Shown here one piece after another: positions 37,568 to 47,958 of a DNA stretch of 64,000 bases (position 1 is its first letter; the number at the start of each line of letters is the position of its first letter). Both the position numbers and the translations under genes were made by a program. The notes below the pieces were generated by a model. That model saw only the letters and a list, made by a program, of their open reading frames with translations. It had not been told where the DNA came from and did not search any database. Location: contig OZ242214.1 in assembly GCA_965206595.1 (NCBI GenBank), positions 6,432,001 through 6,496,000 on the forward strand. Reading direction: 5' to 3'. Origin of the DNA: Candidatus Latescibacterota bacterium. GTDB taxonomy: Bacteria; Latescibacterota; UBA2968; UBA8231.

Positions 37568-37731
37568 GGCCTGCTCGGCATCTGTCCGCAGCAGGGCGTC
37601 AAGCCTGAACTCCCTCGCAGAATCTCCATTTGGGGAAAAATCCAGCGATCTAGCGCCTGAGACGGGCGCGGCTTCTTTCGAGTAGAATCGAGCTTGAAGG
37701 AGGAGGGGCGGGCGGCGGCCCGTCGGCGAAA

Positions 37732-37766
37732 CCGTATATAATACGGGAGCACCGTATTATATACGG
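37732..37766. promoter_or_regulatory. Tandem palindromic operator, CCGTAT-N3-ATACGG x2 (putative activator binding site)
   Basis: CCGTATATAATACGG-GAGCA-CCGTATTATATACGG; same core at 43502-43522. Confidence 0.7.
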
Positions 37767-37817
37767 CAGGACCGGAAAGCTGGTGCCACCAAGACGAGTT
37801 GATGGCGGCGAAAAGAA

Positions 37818-38672
37818 GAACCTATCTCAAAATTGAAATTGTTTAAGCAAAATCAAAATGGATGCAAGTTGGACGAAGCCAAGAAAATTCTCCGGATACA
37901 ATTCCCAGCGAGTGATCACTCGACGCTGCCATTGAAGCCAAGCAAAGAATCTCTCAACCATCCAAGGCCGCACATAACGCCGCAATCGCCGTCCATCCTG
38001 AGTCTTTTTCTTGGTCCGATTCTGGCGATGCGGGGCGATCATCTCGATCCCGTCTTTCTTAAGCTCTTCATCCAACGAATCGCTGTCGTACGCCTTGTCG
38101 CCGATCAAGTTGTCAGGTTGGTCTTCGATGAGGTAAAAGTCAAAGGTCAACTGAACCAGCGTCACTTCATGATGGTTCGCTGCATGCGTGCTCACCGACA
38201 AGGGAAGCCCATTGCCGTCCACGATCCCCATGACCCGCACCCCCTTACCTCGCCTGGTGTGGCCGATATCGGCACCTCCACCCTTGGCCGCCGAGAACAT
38301 GCCGTCGATGAAAGCCTCCGATTCGTCCAAGCCCCCTTGCTCGTGAAGGGTCTGGGCCAGGTCCATGAGAACTTCGCGTACCACCCCTTGACGACACCCG
38401 TTTTGAAAACGGCGATGCACGGTTTTGTAGTTCGGATAGCACGGCGGCAACATATGCCATTGAGCCCCGGTGTTTAGAATCCAAAGAACGGCTTCAAAAA
38501 CATCACGGGTGCAAACCGGTTTGCGACCCCGGATGGCTCTTGGGACGAAGTTCTTCAGGAAAGTGATGCCGGATTCGTTGCCATTGCATGTCGGTCAGGT
38601 TGACCATACACCAATGGTACATCACTGTCATTTCGAAAACAAGTTTAAGTTTGCCTATTTTGAGATAGGTTC
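37818..38672 (-). mobile_element. IS5-family insertion sequence, 855 bp
   Basis: Perfect 16-bp terminal IRs GAACCTATCTCAAAAT (37818-37833, 38657-38672), flanking AAGAA duplication, lower GC. Confidence 0.92.
37827..38607 (-). CDS. IS5 transposase (frameshift ~38530)
   Basis: MVNLTDMQWQRI.../GRKP..VLWILNTGAQW, IDG, GDKAYDS, VERFFAWL. Confidence 0.88.
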
Positions 38673-38703
38673 AAGAAAAAGTGGTGTTAGTCAGCCACCG
38701 CAA

Positions 38704-38775
38704 AAACAACAGGTTACGAAAACTACAAACGCCAATTCATGGGCTCCCCGGCCATGTTCAGGCACGCCTTTTGCG
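38704..38775 (+). promoter_or_regulatory. IHF-like site plus sigma-54 promoter
   Basis: AAACAACAGGTTA 38704-38716; AGGCACGCCTTTTGCG 38760-38775. Confidence 0.75.
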
Positions 38776-38847
38776 AGTCTTCGAAATCGACAGGGAAAGG
38801 GGGAGCCTGTCGGGCCCATGCCCGGGCAGAACAAGGAGGAGAAACAG

Positions 38848-39831
38848 ATGCTTTTTTCCGTCACAACGAATCGGTGGAGCATGGCCCTCGTCCTGCTCAT
38901 CGGGCCGGCCCTGTCGGCCGAAGCCCACGTCGGCGGTCGAGTGTTCCCGATTCCCGAACTCACCGACGAAATGCTGGCCGAGATCCAGCTCGACGGCTTC
39001 GTGGAGGAGTGGTCGGATCTGATCGGCGAACCGACCCTGACCCTGCTTGACTTCACCCACGGAGGGGGGGGGGGGGGGAGCCTCGATCCGTCGGATATCG
39101 ACTTCCGGATCTGGCTGGCCTGGCACGATGATCCGGCTCGTATCTATGCAGCCTTGGTGGTCGCCGATGACGTTTACAAGAATACTCACACTTACGATGT
39201 GGATTGGGCCACCTCACTAAAAAGTAGCATGGTTGGCGGCAACGACAGTATTCGCCTTGGAGTCGACGGAGATCACAGCGGCGGTCCCGGGTTTGTTGAT
39301 CAATCATTCGAAACAAAGGAACTCGCGGAGGCCGAACTCGTGAAGGTCTCTGGGAAGACCCAGATGTATGAGGCCATTTCCCGCACTCCTGATGGACCGA
39401 CCGTGGATGCCCGGAGATCCAGGTACTGGAGCGGGGTCTTCTCCTGGATGGCCCTTCCTCCCTTCGCGGAGGCCGGCGGCAGGGTAGCCGGAGAAACGCC
39501 GGTCATCTGGTCGATCGAGCTGTACATCACGCCGTTCGACCACAGGGGGGAGGAGTTGACCAGCCCCGAAGGGAGTGTGATAAGCGATCTGAGCGCCGAT
39601 CGGTTCATCGGCTTCGCGATTGGGGTGTTTGATGAGGACGGGCGGGATCCTCATACGGAACCAAGGAGGTTGATACCGGAAGCCTTGGCGGGTCCCGATC
39701 ATGAAGTTTTTTCCGATATGTCTGATTTTCGCGCCGACAATTTTCTCGATGGGCTGCTGCTGCCGGCTGGAGGCACTGCGGTCGAGTCGGTTACCTGGGG
39801 CCGGATCAAGGCTTCCCTGGAACTGAAGTAG
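38848..39831 (+). CDS. Secreted CBM9/DOMON-like protein with WGRIKA C-terminal motif (paralog 1)
   Basis: RBS AAGGAGG, signal peptide AEA|H, AWHDDPARIY..V.DD and DSI.L.VDGD motifs, VESVTWGRIKASLELK. Confidence 0.8.
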   Translation: MLFSVTTNRWSMALVLLIGPALSAEAHVGGRVFPIPELTDEMLAEIQLDGFVEEWSDLIGEPTLTLLDFTHGGGGGGSLDPSDIDFRIWLAWHDDPARIYAALVVADDVYKNTHTYDVDWATSLKSSMVGGNDSIRLGVDGDHSGGPGFVDQSFETKELAEAELVKVSGKTQMYEAISRTPDGPTVDARRSRYWSGVFSWMALPPFAEAGGRVAGETPVIWSIELYITPFDHRGEELTSPEGSVISDLSADRFIGFAIGVFDEDGRDPHTEPRRLIPEALAGPDHEVFSDMSDFRADNFLDGLLLPAGGTAVESVTWGRIKASLELK

Positions 39832-40183
39832 CCGGCGTATCGTCCGGTCCATTTCGCAGCCTTCCTTTCAAGCCCTCGTAACATTGGCTTTCCCTAAAGC
39901 ATTCCTTCCGGCTTGGCCCTTTCCAGCCCTCCTTCTACTGAACGCACGCCTGGACCGCTCAAGCTGACCGTCTTCCTTTCGCTATGTTCGCTCCTGTGGC
40001 AGCCCCCCGCCGTGGCCCCCTACATGGAATAGAATGAACCGATGGTTAAGCAGCTGGCTGGCTGACTGGTAATCCAGGTAAGGTGGGGGAAAAACATCCG
40101 CCCCATTGTGCTGCCACACTGGCGAATCGCCAAACCGAAGACACCGAGGGGCGCGTCGGGTAGAGCCCCGTTCAAGACCGCTT

Positions 40184-43100
40184 CTATGGTTTTTCCAGCT
40201 TGTATACACGCATGCGGGAACGCAACCGCTCCTCCTTCATGCCCAATAAAGCAGCCGCGCCCTTCGGCCCATAAATGACCCCATCGGTTGTCTGCAGGGC
40301 TTCCAGGATCTGTTGCTTTTCAGTCTTGAAGACCGTGCCGGCTTCCATTCCCTCAACCTGATCGACCGGCGGGGCGGACGTCCGCGACGAAACAGGTCCA
40401 TCCCCGTCCCGGCCATCATCTAGGAATACATCCTCGAGTTGCAAGACAGGATTCCGGCACACGATCACCGCCCGCTGCATCATGTGCTCCAGCTCACGCA
40501 CGTTCCCCGGCCAGGGATACTCCTGAAAGCGCCTCAATGCCTCGGGGCTCAGAGACGGCACCGGCCACCCCAACTCCCCGGCAAACCGGTTCGCGAAGTA
40601 GGCCGCGAGGAACGGTATTTCCTCGCGGCGGTCCCGCAGGGGCGGGATTTTCACCGGGAACACGTTCAGGCGGTGGAACAGGTCTTCCCGGAACTCCCTT
40701 TTGGAGATGGCCTCATTCAAATCCCGGTTGGTCGCCGCAACCACCCGGACATCCACCTTGACAGGGGCCTGCCCGCCGACGCGGGTCAGGCGGCCCTCTT
40801 CCAAAACGTGGAGCAGAACCCTTTGGGCCTCCAAGGGCAGGTCCCCGATTTCATCGAGGAACAGGGTGCCCCCGTGCGCCTGTTCGAACCGGCCTTTCTT
40901 CGATTCTACCGCGTTGGTAAAGGCGCCCTTTTCATGGCCGAACAGTTCGCTTTCCACCAACCCCGGGGGCAGGCCTCCGCAGTTGACCGGGATAAAGGGA
41001 TGCCCCCGGCGCGGACTCGCGGCGTGAATGTGCTTGGCGAGCACCCCCTTGCCCACCCCGGTCTCCCCCAGCACCAGCACTATTGCATCGGTTTCGGCCA
41101 CCTGTTCTGCCAGTTTCAGGACCCGGGACATGACCGGACTGTTTTTGAGCATGTCCTGCCGCGAGGTCCATGGCATATGCTCCAGTTCCGGGCCGGGTGC
41201 GCCTTCCTCCTCCGCAACCACCTGCACCTCCAGGCTGACCGCGTCCGACATCAGGCCGTCCCGGTCCATGGCCCGCACCTCGAAGCGGAACCCGCCCGCA
41301 GGCAGAGCGGAGAACGAAACCCGGTTGGCGGGAGTGAACCTGCTCCAGGATTCGGCCGGGCCATGACCGACGAGCCGGTGGCTGTAGCGCATCTGCGCGG
41401 CCCCGGTTCTGAAACTGATGCCCTGAAACTCGATTCGAACCTCGCGGGTGCTGTCCGGGCAGGACACGGCCCGGGGGGCCTTGAAGAGACGCCCGGCCTC
41501 GACCCGGCCGATCACCAGGGCAGGCGGCACCTGGCCGGGCAGGTACGCGATGAGACCCGCACCCGTGCCGAACCAAAGCTGGCCGTCGCTGGCGCGCAGG
41601 ATGTCCTCGACCACGTTCTCCAGGCTGGCGTTCCCCAGGCGAAGGGTCTGGAAAGCATGCGCGTCGTACTTCATCACCCCCCCGCCGCTCGTGCCGACCC
41701 ACAGGCACCTTTTCTCCGGGTCGGCCGCCAGACAAGAGGATGCCATTGACGGATAAATCCCCCTGGTCCACGGTAAACCGGCGAACTCGCCCGGCGGTGA
41801 AATCAAGGACGAACAGGCCGTTGTTGGCCGTGCCCACCCAGAGCCTGTCTTCGTGCTCGCACAGGGCAGTCACTTGAGATACGGCCTCCAACCCGGCCAT
41901 TGCCGGCGGCTGAAAGCGGCCGTCCTCGTACCGGTACAGCGCCGGGGCGGTCCCCTCGGTGCCGGCCCAGACGGCACCGTCCCGGGCCGGCAGCACGGCG
42001 CGGCACTCGTGGGGCAGCCCTTCTGCCAACGAGTTGAACCGGTCGGCTTCTATCCGCCCCAGGCGCCCCCGGGAGGTGCCGGCCCATACACGCCCGCGGC
42101 CGTCCGCGCGCAGGGCCGTGACTTCTTCCCCGGAGCCGGTTTCGGCCACCTCGATCGCTCGGGATTCCTTTCCCGTCCACTTGAATACCTTGCCCTCCGG
42201 GCTTCCACTCCAAACCGGCCCCGGACCCTCCGCCACCAGCGCCGAGACCATGGGCCCGTTCTCCACCGTACGGATGCGGTCGTCTTCCAGGCAGGCCAAG
42301 CCCCCCATGGTGCCGATCCACAGCCGCCCCGTCCCGTCTTCGTCCAGGCACCGAACCTCGTTGTCGGGCAGACCGTCGTCTTCCGTGTACAACTGCACGC
42401 TGACCGGATCGCAGAAGAGCAGCCCGCCGCCCCACAGTCCTATCCAGATGTTTCCCTCGCGGTCCTCGTAGGTCAGCCGCGTGTCCGAGAAATGGGTACC
42501 TTGCAAGCGGGCCGAAAACGGATGCCAGGTCTGTCCGTCGTACACCAGGACCCCCCGGCGAGCCATCCACAGCCAGCCCCTGTCGTCCTGGCGCACATGC
42601 CGCGTGCCGTGCTGGACGACTTCACCGCTCTCGACCTCATGGTCCACCTCGATCAGGTCGAGCTGTTGGCGCTGGGGGTCGTAACGGCCGATAACGGCTT
42701 CGCTGCCCACGTAGCGGAAGCCGATCCACAGACCGCCGGAGGCGTCCAGGGCGAACTTCCAGGGCCACTGCATGGCGGTTTCCCCGGTGCCCAGATGCCC
42801 GTTCATGGGCTGACCTTCCAGATCGATGATCCCCCGCTCCCGCGACGCCAGCCAGGTCGTACCCGCCCCGTCGGTGGCCATGTCGTATACCGCTCCGAGG
42901 GGTTGGTCAGCAAGGTCGGTCACAGGCTCCAGGCACCGCCCCTCGACAAAGCGGGCGATCCCGTTCCCGGTCAGCACCTGTACCGAGCCGTCCGCCTGGG
43001 GGTGCAGGCTCAATATGTCGTTGGAGGGCAGTCCGTCCCCGGTGGTGTATACCTGAAACCCCTGCCCGTCGAAAGCGGCCCGCCCGCCCCCGAGAGTCCC

Positions 43101-43385
43101 GAACAACAGGCGCCCGTCCTCGTCCTCGGCGATGGTCATCGCGTTGAGATGGGGAAGCCCGTTCGAGGGACCGAAGGTCTCGAACCGGGCCCCGTCGAAG
43201 CGGCTGACCCCGCCGTCCGCGGTGGCGACCCAGAGGAGCCCCCGGCGGTCCTGGTAGATGTCTTCCACGTGCATCCCGGCCAGCCCGTCGAAGACGGTGT
43301 ACTGGCGCCCGAGCATATGATCGAAAGCCACCCGCCCACCCGCGACCCGGGTGGATGGGGAAAGGGGTTCGGGTGCCTGGTTCAT
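40184..43385 (-). CDS. Beta-propeller (two-component-regulator-type repeats)/Y_Y_Y domain fused to a sigma-54 AAA+-HTH activator (frameshift ~41735; start uncertain)
   Basis: Repeated DGL...I.ED..G.LW.GT motifs, YSHRL...W...F..L..G.F.FEVRA, GETGVGKG, GAFTNA, WPGNVRELE. Confidence 0.85.
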
Positions 43386-43501
43386 TTTCGCCTTCGTTCT
43401 CTTTGTGAATGCAAGGGGATTGCTACCTGAGGACCGTACCGATAAGGAAGAACGATAGCAGGAGCAAGCAGCCGCCGACGTCTGGCCGCTGCCCATCGGA
43501 G

Positions 43502-43668
43502 AAGTCGTATTAAATACGACTTGAGATCGAGGAGCCGGTGGCGACAGGGACGAGTCGAGGTTGGCCAAAATAAAAAATGGTGTTATAAGAGTAAGTAAAA
43601 ACAACGAGTTATGTCACCATTGGCACAATTAATTGAGCTGCAGACCATGTAAAGGCACGCTTATTGCG
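43502..43668 (+). promoter_or_regulatory. Palindromic activator box, IHF-like site and sigma-54 promoter
   Basis: AAGTCGTAT-TAA-ATACGACTT 43502-43522; AAACAACGAGTTA ~43599-43611; AGGCACGCTTATTGCG 43653-43668. Confidence 0.8.
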
Positions 43669-43727
43669 TAATATCTGGATGAACCGGGGTAGCGACAGGC
43701 GCGACCCCGGAAACAAAGGAGGCAGTA

Positions 43728-43955
43728 ATGTCGCATCTTGCGAAGTACATCGTCGCCGTTCTGCTGGGCGCAGGGGTCCTGCTGGGCGGTGCATCCCTCG
43801 TGGACGCCCACTCCAAGAGTGAGAGTTGGTGGAGCCACTACCAGTACGCCCAGACCGAGAGCCTGTGCGCCTACGAGTGCGCGCTGAAGAACCACGATAG
43901 TTACGACTGGGACTGCGATGATGATGGTGATCACGCATGCTCCTGCAGGTACTGA
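43728..43955 (+). CDS. Small secreted Cys/Asp-rich peptide
   Basis: RBS AAGGAGG, hydrophobic signal peptide VDA|H, 5 Cys; first ORF after the sigma-54 promoter. Confidence 0.65.
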   Translation: MSHLAKYIVAVLLGAGVLLGGASLVDAHSKSESWWSHYQYAQTESLCAYECALKNHDSYDWDCDDDGDHACSCRY

Positions 43956-44136
43956 CTGCCAGGACTCGGAACCGCGCCCAGGCCTGCGCCCGGATGAAGA
44001 GTGCGCCAACGCCCTTGACCATGGGGCGTTGGCGCACCGTACACACCGATTTCGTGGAAAGAAACAAACGGGTCTTGCCGGACTCGATGAATCGTCCGGC
44101 GATCCGGTGACTTGTGACCAGGGAGAAAAAGACAAG

Positions 44137-45081
44137 ATGACCTGCATCCAGATAAAAAAGCAGTTGTCCCCTGCAGTGAGCCTGCTCATGCTGGTGGCAC
44201 TGGCGGCTGGCCTGTCTGCCCGGGCAGACGCCCACAGCGGCGGCCGCGTGTACCCGATTGCCTATCTCAGCGACGAGATGCTGGCCGAAATCCGGCTCGA
44301 CGACGGCCGCATAGACGAATGGATCGAGCTGGTAGGCGAGCCGGCCATGACCCTGCTGGATTTTTCAGAAGACCAGGGGTTCCCACTTGATCCGTCCAAC
44401 TTGGACTTCCAGATCTGGTTGGGTTGGCACGACGACCCTGCACGCATTTATGCAGCCTGCGTGGCCAGCGATGACGTGTACATGAACACCCACGACTACG
44501 ATGCAGTTCGGGGATCTCTTCGAGGTAATATTGAAATGCATGACAGTGTGGCCCTCGCAATCGATGGAGATCACAGCGGGGGTGTGGGCACCGACAATAC
44601 ATCACGCGAGCAATCAATGCAGGTCCATAGTGAAACTCAATACTATGAGGCCATCGCCCGCACCGTGAGCGGCCCGACTCTGGATGACATCCTCATCAGG
44701 CCCTGGACGGTCCTGCCCCCCTATGGGGAAGGGGGAGGAGGGGTCTTCGGAGAAGCGCCCGTCATCAGCGTGATCGAGCTGTATGTAACGCCGTTCGACC
44801 ATTTGGAGGAAGATAACCCCGAGGGGAGCGTGGTCAGCGATCTGACCGCGGGGAAGGTCATCGGTTTTGCCATTATGATAAGTGACTGGGACCAGGAAGA
44901 TTGGAAACGTATCTGGACACCCGAAGCCATGCAATCTGAAACTAATGATACCCGAATCGACATAACTCGCCGTCGTGCTGATCGCTTTCTCGATGGGATT
45001 CTGCTGTCCCCGAACTCGACCGAACCGGAAGGCACTGTGGTCGAGTGGACAACCTGGGGCAGAATCAAGGCCTCCCTTTGA
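44137..45081 (+). CDS. Secreted CBM9/DOMON-like WGRIKA protein (paralog 2)
   Basis: ADA|HSGGRVYPI...VEWTTWGRIKASL; an extra T near 45077 truncates the EME tail. Confidence 0.8.
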   Translation: MTCIQIKKQLSPAVSLLMLVALAAGLSARADAHSGGRVYPIAYLSDEMLAEIRLDDGRIDEWIELVGEPAMTLLDFSEDQGFPLDPSNLDFQIWLGWHDDPARIYAACVASDDVYMNTHDYDAVRGSLRGNIEMHDSVALAIDGDHSGGVGTDNTSREQSMQVHSETQYYEAIARTVSGPTLDDILIRPWTVLPPYGEGGGGVFGEAPVISVIELYVTPFDHLEEDNPEGSVVSDLTAGKVIGFAIMISDWDQEDWKRIWTPEAMQSETNDTRIDITRRRADRFLDGILLSPNSTEPEGTVVEWTTWGRIKASL

Positions 45082-45091
45082 GATGGAATAG

Positions 45092-45185
45092 CATGCGTTT
45101 CGGGCACTTCGTCCATCCGAAGTCGTTCCAGGCGGCCCGATAGGTCGTCCGGCGATATCCGTTCTTGAACTAAGGAGAGTAGCCG
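45092..45185. repeat. Structured intergenic repeat, copy 1
   Basis: Near-identical to 46164-46259; two hairpins. Confidence 0.85.
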
Positions 45186-46163
45186 ATGACTCTTCCCCGG
45201 ATCGAGAAACGATGTCGCGCCCCCCTGTTCCTGCTCCTCCTGCTGGCCGTCTCGGCCGGCCTGTCTGCCCAGGCCGGGGCCCACAGCGGCGGCCGCGTAT
45301 TCCCTATTCCAGAGCTAACGGACGAGATGCTGGAACAGATCCAGCTCGACGACGGCTCGGTAGACGAATGGTTCGAGTTGATCGGCGAGCCGGCCATGAC
45401 CCTGCTGGATTTTCAGACCCACAGCAACTTCCTACCGCCGGATCCCTCCAATCTCGACTTCCGCATCTGGCTGGCCTGGCACGACGACCCGGATCGTCTC
45501 TACGTCGCCTTCGTGGGCGCCGATGATCTGTACAAGAACAACCACGACTACGATGCTTTTGGCGTCCGAAGTTCTATCGACAGCCATGACAGCATCACTC
45601 TGGCCATCGACGGAGATCACAGCGGCGGGGCAGGGGTAACCAGCACTTCGTCGCAAGAGGAATTGCTGGAGGCAAGGGGCCAAACTCAGCGATATGAGGC
45701 GATTGCCCGCACCGTCAGCGGGCCGCTCATCAGTAACGGGCTTTATGAAGGGACCGGGGTATTCTCCTGGAAGGTGTTTCCTCCGTACGGGGATGCCGGC
45801 GGGGGCGTCTTCGGGGAAGCGCCGGTCATCAGCGTAATCGAGCTGTATGTCACCCCGTACGACCGGTGGGGGGCGTGGAATGAGATCGAAGAGACCGAGT
45901 TCAGCGATCTGGCCGCGGGACAGGTGATCGGCTTTGCGATCATGGTGAATGACCGGGACGACGAAGAGTTAGGCGGGTGGCCCTGGACACCCGAAGCCAT
46001 GGAGCCCAGTAATCCCCGTCACGGTACGGAAGTCGACATGCGGAAAGTTCGAGCGGATTTCTTTCTCGACGGCATCCTGCTGCCAGCCGGCGCCGAACCG
46101 GAAGGCACCGCGGTCGAGTCGGTCTCTTGGGGGCGGATCAAGGCCTCCCTTGAGATGGAATAG
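45186..46163 (+). CDS. Secreted CBM9/DOMON-like WGRIKA protein (paralog 3)
   Basis: AGA|HSGGRVFPI...VESVSWGRIKASLEME. Confidence 0.85.
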   Translation: MTLPRIEKRCRAPLFLLLLLAVSAGLSAQAGAHSGGRVFPIPELTDEMLEQIQLDDGSVDEWFELIGEPAMTLLDFQTHSNFLPPDPSNLDFRIWLAWHDDPDRLYVAFVGADDLYKNNHDYDAFGVRSSIDSHDSITLAIDGDHSGGAGVTSTSSQEELLEARGQTQRYEAIARTVSGPLISNGLYEGTGVFSWKVFPPYGDAGGGVFGEAPVISVIELYVTPYDRWGAWNEIEETEFSDLAAGQVIGFAIMVNDRDDEELGGWPWTPEAMEPSNPRHGTEVDMRKVRADFFLDGILLPAGAEPEGTAVESVSWGRIKASLEME

Positions 46164-46259
46164 CATGCGTTTCGGACACTTCGTCCATCCGAAGTCGTTC
46201 CAGACGGCCCGATAGGTCGTCCGGCGATATCCGTTCTTGAACTAAAGGAGAGCAAGCCG
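46164..46259. repeat. Structured intergenic repeat, copy 2
   Basis: Near-identical to 45092-45185. Confidence 0.85.
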
Positions 46260-47249
46260 ATGACCCTTGCCCGGATCGAGAAACGATGTAGCACCTCCCT
46301 GTTCCTGCTCCTTTCGTTGGCCGTCTCGGCCGGCCTGTCCCCCCAGGCAGACGCCCACAGCGGCGGCCGCGTGTACCCGATTGCCTATCTCAGCGACGAG
46401 ATGCTGGAACAGATCCAGCTCGACGACGGCTCGGTAGACGAATGGTTCGAGCTGATCGGCGAGCCGGCCATGACCCTGCTGGATTTTTCCAGCCAGAATG
46501 ACTTCGAGGCTCTTGATCCGTCCGACCTGGATTTCCGCATCTGGCTGGCCTGGAACGATGACCCCGACCGTCTCTACGTGGCTTTCGTGTCCAGCGACGA
46601 CGTGTACACGAACAATCACGACTACGAAGCAATTCGGGGATCTCTTCGAGATCTCATACATCTCTATGACAGCATCACTCTGGCCATCGATGGAGATCAC
46701 AGCGGGGGCAGGGGCTGTCCCTACAATTGCCAGATGGAGGATTCGCGGGAGGTCCGTAGCAGAACGCAGCGCTACGAGGCCATCGCGCGCACCGTCAGCG
46801 GTCCCACCCTGGATGATTCATCTACCAGATATATAACGGAAGAGATCGCCTGGACGGTCCTGCCTCCCTACGGGCAGGGAGGCGGCGGCGTAGCAGGGGA
46901 AGCCCCGACGATCAGCGTGATCGAGTTCTACGTCACCCCGTTTGACCGCTTTTCGTCCGATGACCCCGAGGGGAGCGTGGTCAGCGATCTGGCCGCGGGC
47001 CAGGTCATCGGCTTTGCTATCATGGTCAATGACTGGGATAGTTTTGATAGGGACAATGGGGATACATCGTACTGGGTACCCGAAGCCATGAATCGCGGTG
47101 ATGCCGACGACAGGCAGCATGAGATAGATGCCGGTTGGGCGGATCTTTTTCTCGACGGCATCCTGCTGCCGGCCGGCGCCGGGCCGGAAGACACCGCGGT
47201 CGAGTCGGTCTCCTGGGGGCGGATCAAGGCCTCCCTGGAGATGGAGTAA
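46260..47249 (+). CDS. Secreted CBM9/DOMON-like WGRIKA protein (paralog 4)
   Basis: ADA|HSGGRVYPI...VESVSWGRIKASLEME. Confidence 0.85.
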   Translation: MTLARIEKRCSTSLFLLLSLAVSAGLSPQADAHSGGRVYPIAYLSDEMLEQIQLDDGSVDEWFELIGEPAMTLLDFSSQNDFEALDPSDLDFRIWLAWNDDPDRLYVAFVSSDDVYTNNHDYEAIRGSLRDLIHLYDSITLAIDGDHSGGRGCPYNCQMEDSREVRSRTQRYEAIARTVSGPTLDDSSTRYITEEIAWTVLPPYGQGGGGVAGEAPTISVIEFYVTPFDRFSSDDPEGSVVSDLAAGQVIGFAIMVNDWDSFDRDNGDTSYWVPEAMNRGDADDRQHEIDAGWADLFLDGILLPAGAGPEDTAVESVSWGRIKASLEME

Positions 47250-47333
47250 CCCGTCATCCCCTCATCGAGCCCTCGACGGGTTACCCAAACTCGACCGACC
47301 CCCCTTCCCAATCACACTTCACGGGACTGACCC

Positions 47334-47958
47334 ATGACTGGATCGCCTTGCAGGCTGACAGCCGGCTTGTCCCTTTTTTCGCTTCTCTGGCAGCTGTCCA
47401 ATCCGGAGGCGGCCCACAGCCAGGTCGAGAGCGTCTTTCGCATGGCTCGGGACGGATCCTCCATCGAGCGCCTGTCCTCGACAGAGGGCCGGACCACTCC
47501 AACCTGGAGGCAGGACGGCCGGTTATTGTACGTGGCGCACACCGAAAATGGGAACGAGTTTCACCTCGCCTCCCCGGCCGGGGAGGTACTCCTGAGAGTG
47601 CCGGTACCGCCGCGGATAACCAGCGTGGGCGGGGTATCCTGGTTTCCCGACGGCACCCGGATCGCCTTCGCCGGAAAAACAGAGGAGCTGGAGTCCTACG
47701 ACATCTACGTCATGAAGCTCGGTGCCGGAGACGCGGCCATTGAGCCGATCCTGGCGGACGCCATCCAGCCGGCCTTATCGCCTGACGGACAACACCTCGC
47801 TTTCACCACCCACCGCGACGGCAATCTCGAACTGTATGTCGCCGACCACCACGGCCGGAACCTGCGTCACCCGGCTGACCTCGGGGCATGACGGCGACTG
47901 GAAGCCGGCTTGGTCACCTGACAGCAAGAGCCCCTGTTTCGTCTCCAGCCGGGAGTAA
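47334..47958 (+). pseudogene. TolB/PD40-repeat secreted protein, apparently internally deleted and frameshifted (~47866)
   Basis: SWFPDGTRIAF and PALSPDGQHLAF.THRDGNLELY; second frame RLT...PAWSPDSK. Confidence 0.65.

Follow-up and report, generated by a model that had tools for sequence, protein, structure and literature searches.

The question raised by this locus is whether a gene for a sigma-54 activator and the two transcription units beside it form a self-contained switch for secreted proteins, and whether that switch is still in working order. The locus lies at positions 37,732 to 47,958 of a window of 64,000 nucleotides (the whole stretch that was analysed; G000:C1:6432001-6496000) from a Candidatus Latescibacterota bacterium, and an initial annotation had described it as a self-contained, ligand-sensing circuit. 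Judged from its sequence features, the locus is very probably one copy of a lineage-specific sigma-54 regulatory module. The activator, a candidate bacterial enhancer-binding protein (bEBP; 40184-43385, minus strand), consists of Reg_prop propellers, a Y_Y_Y domain, a sigma-54 AAA+ domain, a lid and a putative C-terminal helix-turn-helix (HTH), spread over two frames. On the plus strand, unit 1 contains W1, a secreted protein named here for its WGRIKA tail, and unit 2 contains a Cys-rich secreted peptide, the paralogs W2, W3 and W4 and a PD40 gene. The host genome (G000) is a single-contig, metagenome-type assembly of 7.05 Mb and 63.7% GC, with a completeness of 92.9% and a contamination of 4.5%; G001 denotes a genome of the same genus and G002 a sister species, and the source names of the relatives include 'Gemmatimonadetes/Gemmatimonadota bacterium'. 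The GC content of the 37.5-48 kb stretch is 54-68%, against 71-76% in the upstream flank.

The two units share a promoter layout of box, bend site and -24/-12 element, as the initial annotation had stated, and every element is found in both. Unit 1 has two upstream activating sequence (UAS) boxes, CGTATATAATACG (37733-37745) and CGTATTATATACG (37753-37765), with centres 20 bp apart, and unit 2 has one, CGTATTAAATACG (43506-43518), which precedes the activator start codon by 121 bp and has its centre 142 bp upstream of the promoter GG. The boxes follow the pattern CGTAT-N3-ATACG, which occurs three times in the window against an expectation of 0.03, a count reached by none of 100 shuffles. The sigma-54 promoters on the plus strand are AGGCACGCCTTTTGCG for W1 (38760-38775, predicted start near 38786) and AGGCACGCTTATTGCG for the peptide-W2-W3-W4-PD40 unit (43653-43668, predicted start near 43679); both are exact GGCACG-N4-TTGC elements (at 38761 and 43654) with a GG-GC spacing of 10 nt. 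Between box and promoter stand putative sites resembling the consensus of integration host factor (IHF), AAACAACAGGTTA (38704-38716, plus strand, 57 bp upstream of GG) and AAACAACGAGTTA (43599-43611, plus strand), which have one mismatch to WATCAA-N4-TTR at -55/-57. Such a site is present at -54 to -57 in 9 of the 12 units of the host genus. Two HU/IHF-family genes are found in the host genome, and its rpoN is an intact open frame (446 bits). Behind the promoter of unit 2, upstream of the ribosome-binding site, lies a conserved putative leader hairpin, CCGGGGTAGCG...CGCGACCCCGG (43684-43710, plus strand), the six pairs of which are invariant in 10/10 units; with no compensatory change the structure is neither backed nor rejected.

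The spacing in unit 1 has been altered by an insertion sequence (IS) of the IS5 family (37818-38672, minus strand). This element is 855 bp long, with perfect inverted repeats of 16 nt and a transposase open reading frame (ORF) at 37827-38453 that matches DDE_Tnp_1 (E 2.8e-11) and DUF4096 in Pfam, and 20 full-length copies with 91-100% identity are present in the genome. The distance of 142 bp from box centre to GG had been claimed for both units. It stands for unit 2, but in unit 1 it is obtained only when a 5-bp duplication, AAGAA, is removed together with the IS. A 2-bp duplication flanks 8 of the 19 other full-length copies, so the target duplication of the copy in the window is likely AA, and the restored spacing of unit 1 is 145 bp, not 142. 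Either value falls in the span of 141-148 bp covered by 16 units.

Genome-wide, CGTAT-N3-ATACG occurs in only seven copies in 7.05 Mb, in each case with an exact -24/-12 element 142-186 bp downstream. The four copies outside the window belong to a second locus about 500 kb away, and when one or two symmetric mismatches are allowed a third locus appears, in which TGTATTTAATACA lies 143 bp upstream of GGCACC-N4-TTGC. In total the host genome has eight units in three loci, with an activator paralog at every locus. Exact GGCACG-N4-TTGC sites number 31, seven of which belong to the eight units, and homologs of the unit promoter regions are found nowhere else in the host genome. At the second locus, one unit has two tandem copies of its -24/-12 element, 32 bp apart, with repeats of the pentamer ATTGC behind them (G000:C1 6970209-6970241). 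The sequence upstream of the unit-1 boxes (37620-37800) is homologous to a stretch that follows the W genes at the second locus, which explains contig joints such as 47249 to 37532 and points to a possible duplication of units by recombination.

Beyond the host genome, the proximal box centre is found at -141 to -148 in 16/16 units from five genomes of two genera, with additional boxes at steps of 19-21 bp. The composite pattern box-N131-143-GGCAC-N5-TTGC is present in 5 of 76 genomes of the bacterial family (six matches in G000, five in G002, and three, one and two in three genomes of a second genus); the reversed pattern, used as a control, gave one match in total across the 76 genomes. In G002, up to four boxes at 19-21 bp steps are followed by the promoter, the peptide, W genes and PD40. 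In the second genus, the proximal box lies at -141/-142, the activator gene stands in tandem rather than in divergent orientation, and a gene for a small, secreted, Cys-rich peptide once more comes first; behind it, an FG-GAP/FlgD_ig protein of about 720 aa takes the place of the W genes. Most loci of this genus carry CACG-GAAAAT-CGTG-type repeats at the same position, with a period of about 20 bp, replacing the CGTAT boxes. Two side observations concern these searches. All promoters of the second genus (L036-L039, L070-L078) contain a near-perfect inverted repeat, AATCCTTTAGG-N5-CCTAAAGGATT, at -65 to -25 from GG whatever the box type, which may be the site of a second regulator or a bend site. 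In four homologous metagenome contigs (L065, L067, L068, L069), CGTAT-N3-ATACG is located 137 bp upstream of GGCACGGTTGTTGC, a pairing that may be due to chance or to another system.

These comparisons bear on the reading that a different regulator binds the boxes, or that they are a functionless promoter cassette that has been duplicated, the activator gene beside them being a coincidence. The eight host units are paralogous, so their conservation within the genome could reflect descent, and units U1, U4, U5 and U6 are not directly beside an activator gene. Across genera, however, the spacing is kept although the spacers look unrelated by eye (no cross-genus alignment was made), and adjacency to the activator persists despite the change from divergent to tandem gene order. 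With the co-variation of recognition helix and half-site described below, which switched at least twice on the tree, these points make this reading very improbable.

The C-terminal 40 aa of the activators align as a conserved pair of helices. A helix of the form PE[RK]LRSR[ML]R[VH] is present in 10/10 activators that adjoin CGTAT half-sites, and PEKLRYRM[RQ]K in 8/8 of those that adjoin CGTG/TGTGG repeats. For two of the ten CGTAT cases, L015 and L016, the helix was read first and the boxes were sought afterwards; they were spotted by eye as CGTAT-N4/N5-ATACG upstream of a nearby -24/-12 element. An inverted-repeat search upstream of three further activators had returned nothing similar, boxes with N4/N5 spacers being spotted by eye later, and the activators of L017 and L079 have no -24/-12 site within 2.5 kb by the criteria used. 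In a maximum-likelihood tree built from the Y_Y_Y/AAA+ part, with the HTH left out, at least two label changes are needed, and the clade of genus g14 (support 100/99) contains both helix/box types. This co-variation is the strongest sequence-level evidence that the activator would read the CGTAT boxes; since the sequences are kin, it is no statistical proof. The elements, their spacing, repetition and conservation and the helix-box co-variation are all read from the DNA itself.

The domains that the initial annotation had assigned to the activator, a propeller/Y_Y_Y part joined to a sigma-54 AAA+ domain, are borne out by Pfam: Sigma54_activat (PF00158) at E 6.4e-68 (228 bits against a cut-off of 20.2), Reg_prop at E 6e-32, Y_Y_Y and AAA_lid_14. 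The gene is not one open frame, its frame changing near 41737. The Walker A (GETGVGK) and Walker B (GGTLFLDEI) motifs are present. The GAFTGA loop appears as the variant GAFTNA, ELFGHEKGAFTNA, with G replaced by N, in the three host copies and in three sister-species copies, and as GAFTGA or GAFTSA in activators of the second genus. HTH_8 gave no match at E <= 0.01 in the window copy, and PF02954 is detected in some long relatives. The intact ortholog has no transmembrane segment (maximum 19-residue hydropathy 1.28), so the sensor is taken to be cytoplasmic. Against NCBIfam the activator falls below every equivalog cut-off, the best being nifA with 326 bits against 528.85. The architecture is very common: in a search of proteins of 946-2700 aa, 7452 of 8000 scored candidates match the activator at E <= 0.001, and among the matches listed the top ones carry Reg_prop and a sigma-54 domain under generic names only.

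An arrangement of box, IHF site and promoter is the textbook scheme for sigma-54 promoters of the NtrC/NifA/XylR type. Like these systems, the module has an AAA+ sigma-54 activator, the C-terminus of which is a putative HTH, palindromic sites some 100-200 bp upstream of the promoter, an IHF-like site between box and promoter and the exact GG-N10-GC spacing, and its regulatory logic is this standard scheme of bEBP, UAS, bend and -24/-12 promoter. It differs from them in its sensor, a cytoplasmic Reg_prop/Y_Y_Y part in place of a receiver, GAF, PAS or V4R domain, in the L1 loop GAFTNA of the host genus, and in being a multi-copy module with paralog-specific box variants. Reg_prop/Y_Y_Y sensors are known from the hybrid two-component systems of Bacteroides, in which a periplasmic, glycan-binding sensor is followed by a membrane span, a kinase, a receiver and an AraC output. 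The activator has the propeller and Y_Y_Y sensor in common with these systems by Pfam, but no membrane segment and no kinase, receiver or AraC Pfam domains, and its output is a sigma-54 AAA+ part with a putative HTH.

The closest described analogue in theme, as far as the parts of the source drawn on here go, is the PEP-CTERM/PrsK-PrsR regulon, discovered from a motif and a phylogenetic profile (Haft et al. 2006, PMC1569441). In both, a sigma-54 activator and a common upstream motif control, or would control, many paralogous secreted proteins with a short C-terminal tag (PMC1569441). PrsR is described in the same source as a response regulator with a kinase partner, whereas the activator here appears to be a one-component regulator (PMC1569441); it scores 285.5 bits against TIGR02915, with a cut-off of 502.6, and the tails of the W proteins (WGRIKASLEME) have no PEP motif, transmembrane helix, hydrophobic span or basic end. 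A literature search, with supplements left aside, found neither this regulon nor sigma-54 activators of the Reg_prop/Y_Y_Y type described, in agreement with the earlier claim that no described system matches. The type of sensor on a sigma-54 activator, the helix-box pairing, the set of targets and the tail appear to be undescribed in the literature searched.

The mechanism proposed in this paragraph goes further, and in it binding, bending, the sensing of a signal and the roles of the products are inferred. The activator would be a soluble cytoplasmic protein in which the propeller repeats and Y_Y_Y domain form the sensor, followed by the sigma-54 AAA+ ATPase and the C-terminal HTH. Its dimers would bind the 13-bp palindromic boxes CGTAT-N3-ATACG, present in one to four copies about two helical turns apart, the promoter-proximal one about 142 bp upstream of the GG of the -24/-12 promoter. 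A bend site, which is IHF-consensus-like in the host genus, would bring the oligomerised activator to sigma-54 RNA polymerase, and ATP hydrolysis by the activator would open the promoter. Units would begin with a small Sec-exported, disulfide-rich, defensin-like peptide, followed by tandem secreted CBM9-like proteins with variable loops and then by a PD40 propeller. Our best guess for the products is glycan or surface binding together with a defensin-like effector, for interaction with a host or with competitors.

The genes behind the two promoters are W1 (38848-39831, C-terminal WGRIKASLELK), the peptide (43728-43955), W2 (44137-45081), W3 (45186-46163), W4 (46260-47249) and the PD40 beta-propeller gene (47334-47958), all on the plus strand. 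Signal-peptide-like N-termini are found in all six products, so the statement that only exported proteins lie downstream holds. The four paralogs and the peptide are likewise as described, but the gene called TolB-like is a frameshifted, truncated PD40 gene (frames 47334-47891 and 47722-47958): it is shorter than its intact ortholog of 294 aa, it reaches 57.3 bits against TolB (TIGR02800; cut-off 343), and only PD40 repeats are detected in it. Contigs from three runs of two studies match the broken stretch.

The W proteins are not of an unknown kind: they have a predicted fold related to that of family 9 carbohydrate-binding modules (CBM9). The AlphaFold model of W3 (pLDDT 77) matches CBM9 1i82_A in Foldseek with E 6.3e-9 and a TM score of 0.74 on the target, and 7nwn with E 4e-8, at a probability of 1.0; weaker matches are to DOMON-like subunits of ethylbenzene dehydrogenase and nitrite oxidoreductase. 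In Pfam, W1-W4 match no family at E <= 0.01, which leaves them short of the sequence threshold for CBM9 (PF06452), and NCBIfam has no match for the W proteins or the peptide. Clusters that neighbour W in the Atlas carry CBM9_1 (PF06452) in 13-97% of their members and come mostly from Gemmatimonadota, Latescibacterota and Poribacteria. The W proteins are therefore best described as predicted, divergent CBM9-like beta-sandwiches, their glycan binding being a prediction only. They have the beta-sandwich fold of the CBM9 of Thermotoga maritima Xyn10A (1i82), and differ from it in that each is a secreted protein in its own right, about 320 aa long, and has large insertions that vary, a His after the signal-peptide cut and the WGRIKA tail. 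In an alignment of 60 W sequences, the signal peptide with its AxA cut is followed at once by an invariant His; strands are conserved, other segments vary, and the sequences close with the tail SWGRIKASLExE. Conservation averages 0.78 in strands, compared with 0.63 in coil. The family comprises 101 ORF pieces in the host genome, 73 of them strong matches and 50 apparently full length, and is present in 22 of 24 other genomes of the bacterial family and in none of 16 genomes from other families of the class. In W1, an in-frame run of 15 G (39064-39078) encodes a Gly run; a version 3 nt shorter is present at 39067 in contigs from three of four runs, so the length of the run varies in frame between samples.

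The tail is shared more widely than the fold. The pattern [ST]WG.[IVL]K has 124 occurrences anywhere, 93 of them in the final 16 residues of an ORF; in the window it forms the ends of W1-W4 (39796-39831, 45046-45081, 46128-46163 and 47214-47249, plus strand). Sixty of the 93 ORFs are W proteins and 33 are others, most of which have signal peptides; among 16 of these others that were scanned, seven have a PD40/DPPIV-type domain, one BNR and one a lamin-tail domain, and seven match no family. Found at the ends of several unrelated secreted families, the tail is a candidate for a new, general sorting tag. At 14 of the 15 places with PD40 paralogs, a W ORF is no more than 430 bp away. A further shared feature is the His that stands first after the predicted signal-peptide cut in the W proteins, the peptide and PD40 (38920, 43812, 44221, 45282, 46356 and 47409); the alignments of W and PD40 have this His throughout, that of the peptide family in 18 of 22 members. 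A general preference of signal peptidase for 'A|H' was rejected as its source, since only one of the 33 non-W tail-bearing ORFs shows it. The common N-terminal His may mark a metal site, similar to a histidine brace, or a common processing step.

Across genera the conserved first target is the Cys-rich peptide, not the W array. The peptide is the first gene in five of the eight host units and in the sister-species units, and its family is very small: of 1.84 billion cluster representatives, 22 match at E <= 0.001. In the 75-aa peptide of the window, C47, C51, H56, C71 and C73 are invariant residues, the four Cys positions in 22/22 sequences; in the mature part of the model, C47-x3-C51 falls within a predicted helix (44-53) and C71-x-C73 within the last strand (69-74). 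This predicted combination of a CxxxC helix and a CxC strand is the cysteine-stabilised helix signature of cis-defensins. With the cis-defensins AdDLP and xanthusin-1, as presented in the portions of the survey cited here, the peptide has in common a Sec signal, a CxxxC helix and CxC in the last strand (PMC11561630). It differs from the three-disulfide framework given there in having four Cys, for two predicted disulfides, in the host genus (PMC11561630); only these four are invariant there, members of the second genus have six to nine Cys, and the three-disulfide framework is not found. The top structural matches of the peptide are weak, with defensin-fold proteins frequent among them: in VIA, PDFL2.1 at Z 3.6 and mytilin at Z 3.5 (33 residues, rmsd 1.2); in Foldseek, brazzein, scorpion toxins and plant defensins. 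In the sister species, a unit with CGTAT box and sigma-54 promoter (L015:3900-8398) drives a CxxC protein, TlpA-like redoxin by eye only, and continues with a membrane protein and a Cys-rich protein that starts AAA|HC and ends CFCS; the CxxC and Cys-rich proteins would fit a need for disulfide formation.

Several findings weigh against a working and general switch of this kind. Only 14 W genes stand behind the eight units, and the best upstream -24/-12 scores of the other W genes (6-10 of 12) fall inside the range that random windows of 600 nt give. In G001, 56 W matches were scored, but neither the composite motif nor a close ortholog of the activator is present (best E 3e-15). There is thus no intrinsic tie between the W family and the switch, as W genes occur without a close activator ortholog in G001 and, in the host genome, mostly without a good -24/-12 element. 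In the second genus the exact composite is present in only 3 of 31 genomes, most loci there using other half-sites, and a metagenome scan for the exact composite gave six loci, none with homologs of the activator, W or the peptide within 2.5 kb; four of the six are copies of one unrelated locus. The conservation of the IHF-like site is owed in part to common descent. The structural matches of the peptide are weak, the best in Foldseek (brazzein, E 0.83) not being significant. In the window itself the IS separates the unit-1 boxes from the W1 promoter. Finally, all three activator copies of the host genome are frameshifted, compared with three intact orthologs, so that the circuit may not operate in the host organism.

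The frameshifts admit more than one explanation. Copy A, that of the window, has one extra T near 41737, which divides it into an N-terminal frame (41751-43385) and a C-terminal frame (40184-41806), and copies B and C have in common an extra A and an extra G, the latter within a G run. A stretch of about 160 nt immediately before the Y_Y_Y part contains all three insertions. Five activators of the sister species, G002, are intact, at 1072-1115 aa. The different break sites of the copies and the intact orthologs led to the rejection of a programmed frameshift.

That the activator paralogs are true pseudogenes, their dependent promoters silent and the units heading for loss, is a reading to which we give somewhat less than an even chance. 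Single-nucleotide insertions in 3/3 activator copies set against intact orthologs agree with it, as do the frameshifted and truncated PD40 gene with its matching contigs, the IS in unit 1 with its 20 full-length copies in the genome, and the 50 of 101 W ORF pieces that look full length. No protein of at least 946 aa exceeds 81% identity to the C-terminal query of copy A in a collection of 5.8 billion, a further point against a working switch, and one that fits a real break. With its many IS copies, and with about half of its W ORF pieces fragmentary, the host genome seems to be going through IS expansion and gene decay. Against loss, however, W1-W4 and the peptide are intact open frames with their invariant residues conserved, the boxes and promoters remain exact, another intact activator could cross-activate the units, and the frameshift may be an assembly error, contig cover at the exact site being unseen.

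An assembly or polishing error where three near-identical paralogs diverge, with a circuit that works as in the sister species, is a less favoured explanation and seems to us unlikely. The insertions fall exactly where an N-terminal part of about 93% identity meets a C-terminal part of 74-77% identity, one of them lies within a G run, and the assembly is of the single-contig metagenome type with the completeness and contamination given above. However, among the best 12 of 26 indels in Logan contigs (four runs, three studies) none is near 41737, cover at the exact site not being seen; no intact near-identical long protein was found among proteins of at least 946 aa; rpoN and most W genes read cleanly; and the PD40 break is reproduced in other runs.

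The same breaks would also separate sensor from output, leaving a Y_Y_Y/AAA+/HTH protein made from an internal start. bEBPs with their regulatory domains deleted can become constitutive activators, and the host copies could act in this manner. With one insertion in copy A and two others common to B and C, two or more independent events fall within about 160 nt of a 3.3-kb gene, the C-terminal frames are open for 518-561 aa with possible starts at a TTG at 41806 and the ATG of MKYD..., and the AAA+ motifs are intact. Such clustering is equally compatible with an assembly error at the paralog boundary, and the reading is purely inferential; we regard a constitutive, sensor-less activator as quite improbable. 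In the host genome the switch has probably been put out of action or rewired: 1-nt insertions shift the frame of all three paralogs shortly ahead of the Y_Y_Y/AAA+ part, and the W1 promoter is separated from its boxes by an IS. Of the self-contained circuit first proposed, the sigma-54 layout is upheld, being repeated eight times and kept in the sister species and the second genus, but the circuit looks broken in this genome.

The lineage-specific sigma-54 module has to be considered with the caution that its copy in the host genome may be non-functional. A wider reading, which we put forward tentatively and with more doubt than confidence, is that a family of Gemmatimonadota has undescribed, multi-copy, insulated sigma-54 circuits that privately control repertoires of secreted proteins. 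The paralogous activators would have diverged in two recognition-helix residues together with their half-sites (CGTAT versus CGTG), and each circuit would control a hypervariable defensin-like peptide and a diversified set of exported binding proteins, of the CBM9-like/PD40 kind in one genus and of the FG-GAP/FlgD-Ig kind in another. In the same reading the post-cut His of three exported families hints at a common metal centre or a new processing step, and the [ST]WGxIK tail would direct sorting as a new C-terminal signal. In the portions of the bacterial-defensin survey cited here three phyla are given and Gemmatimonadota is not mentioned (PMC11561630), and the peptide would extend defensin-like peptides to a phylum absent from that list (PMC11561630). 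The pairing of two helix residues with two box types offers a testable DNA-recognition code for an uncharacterised and very common activator architecture, and the module gives a regulatory context to three orphan secreted families of uncultured bacteria. If the wider reading is true, these bacteria would possess a programmable repertoire for interaction with hosts or competitors.

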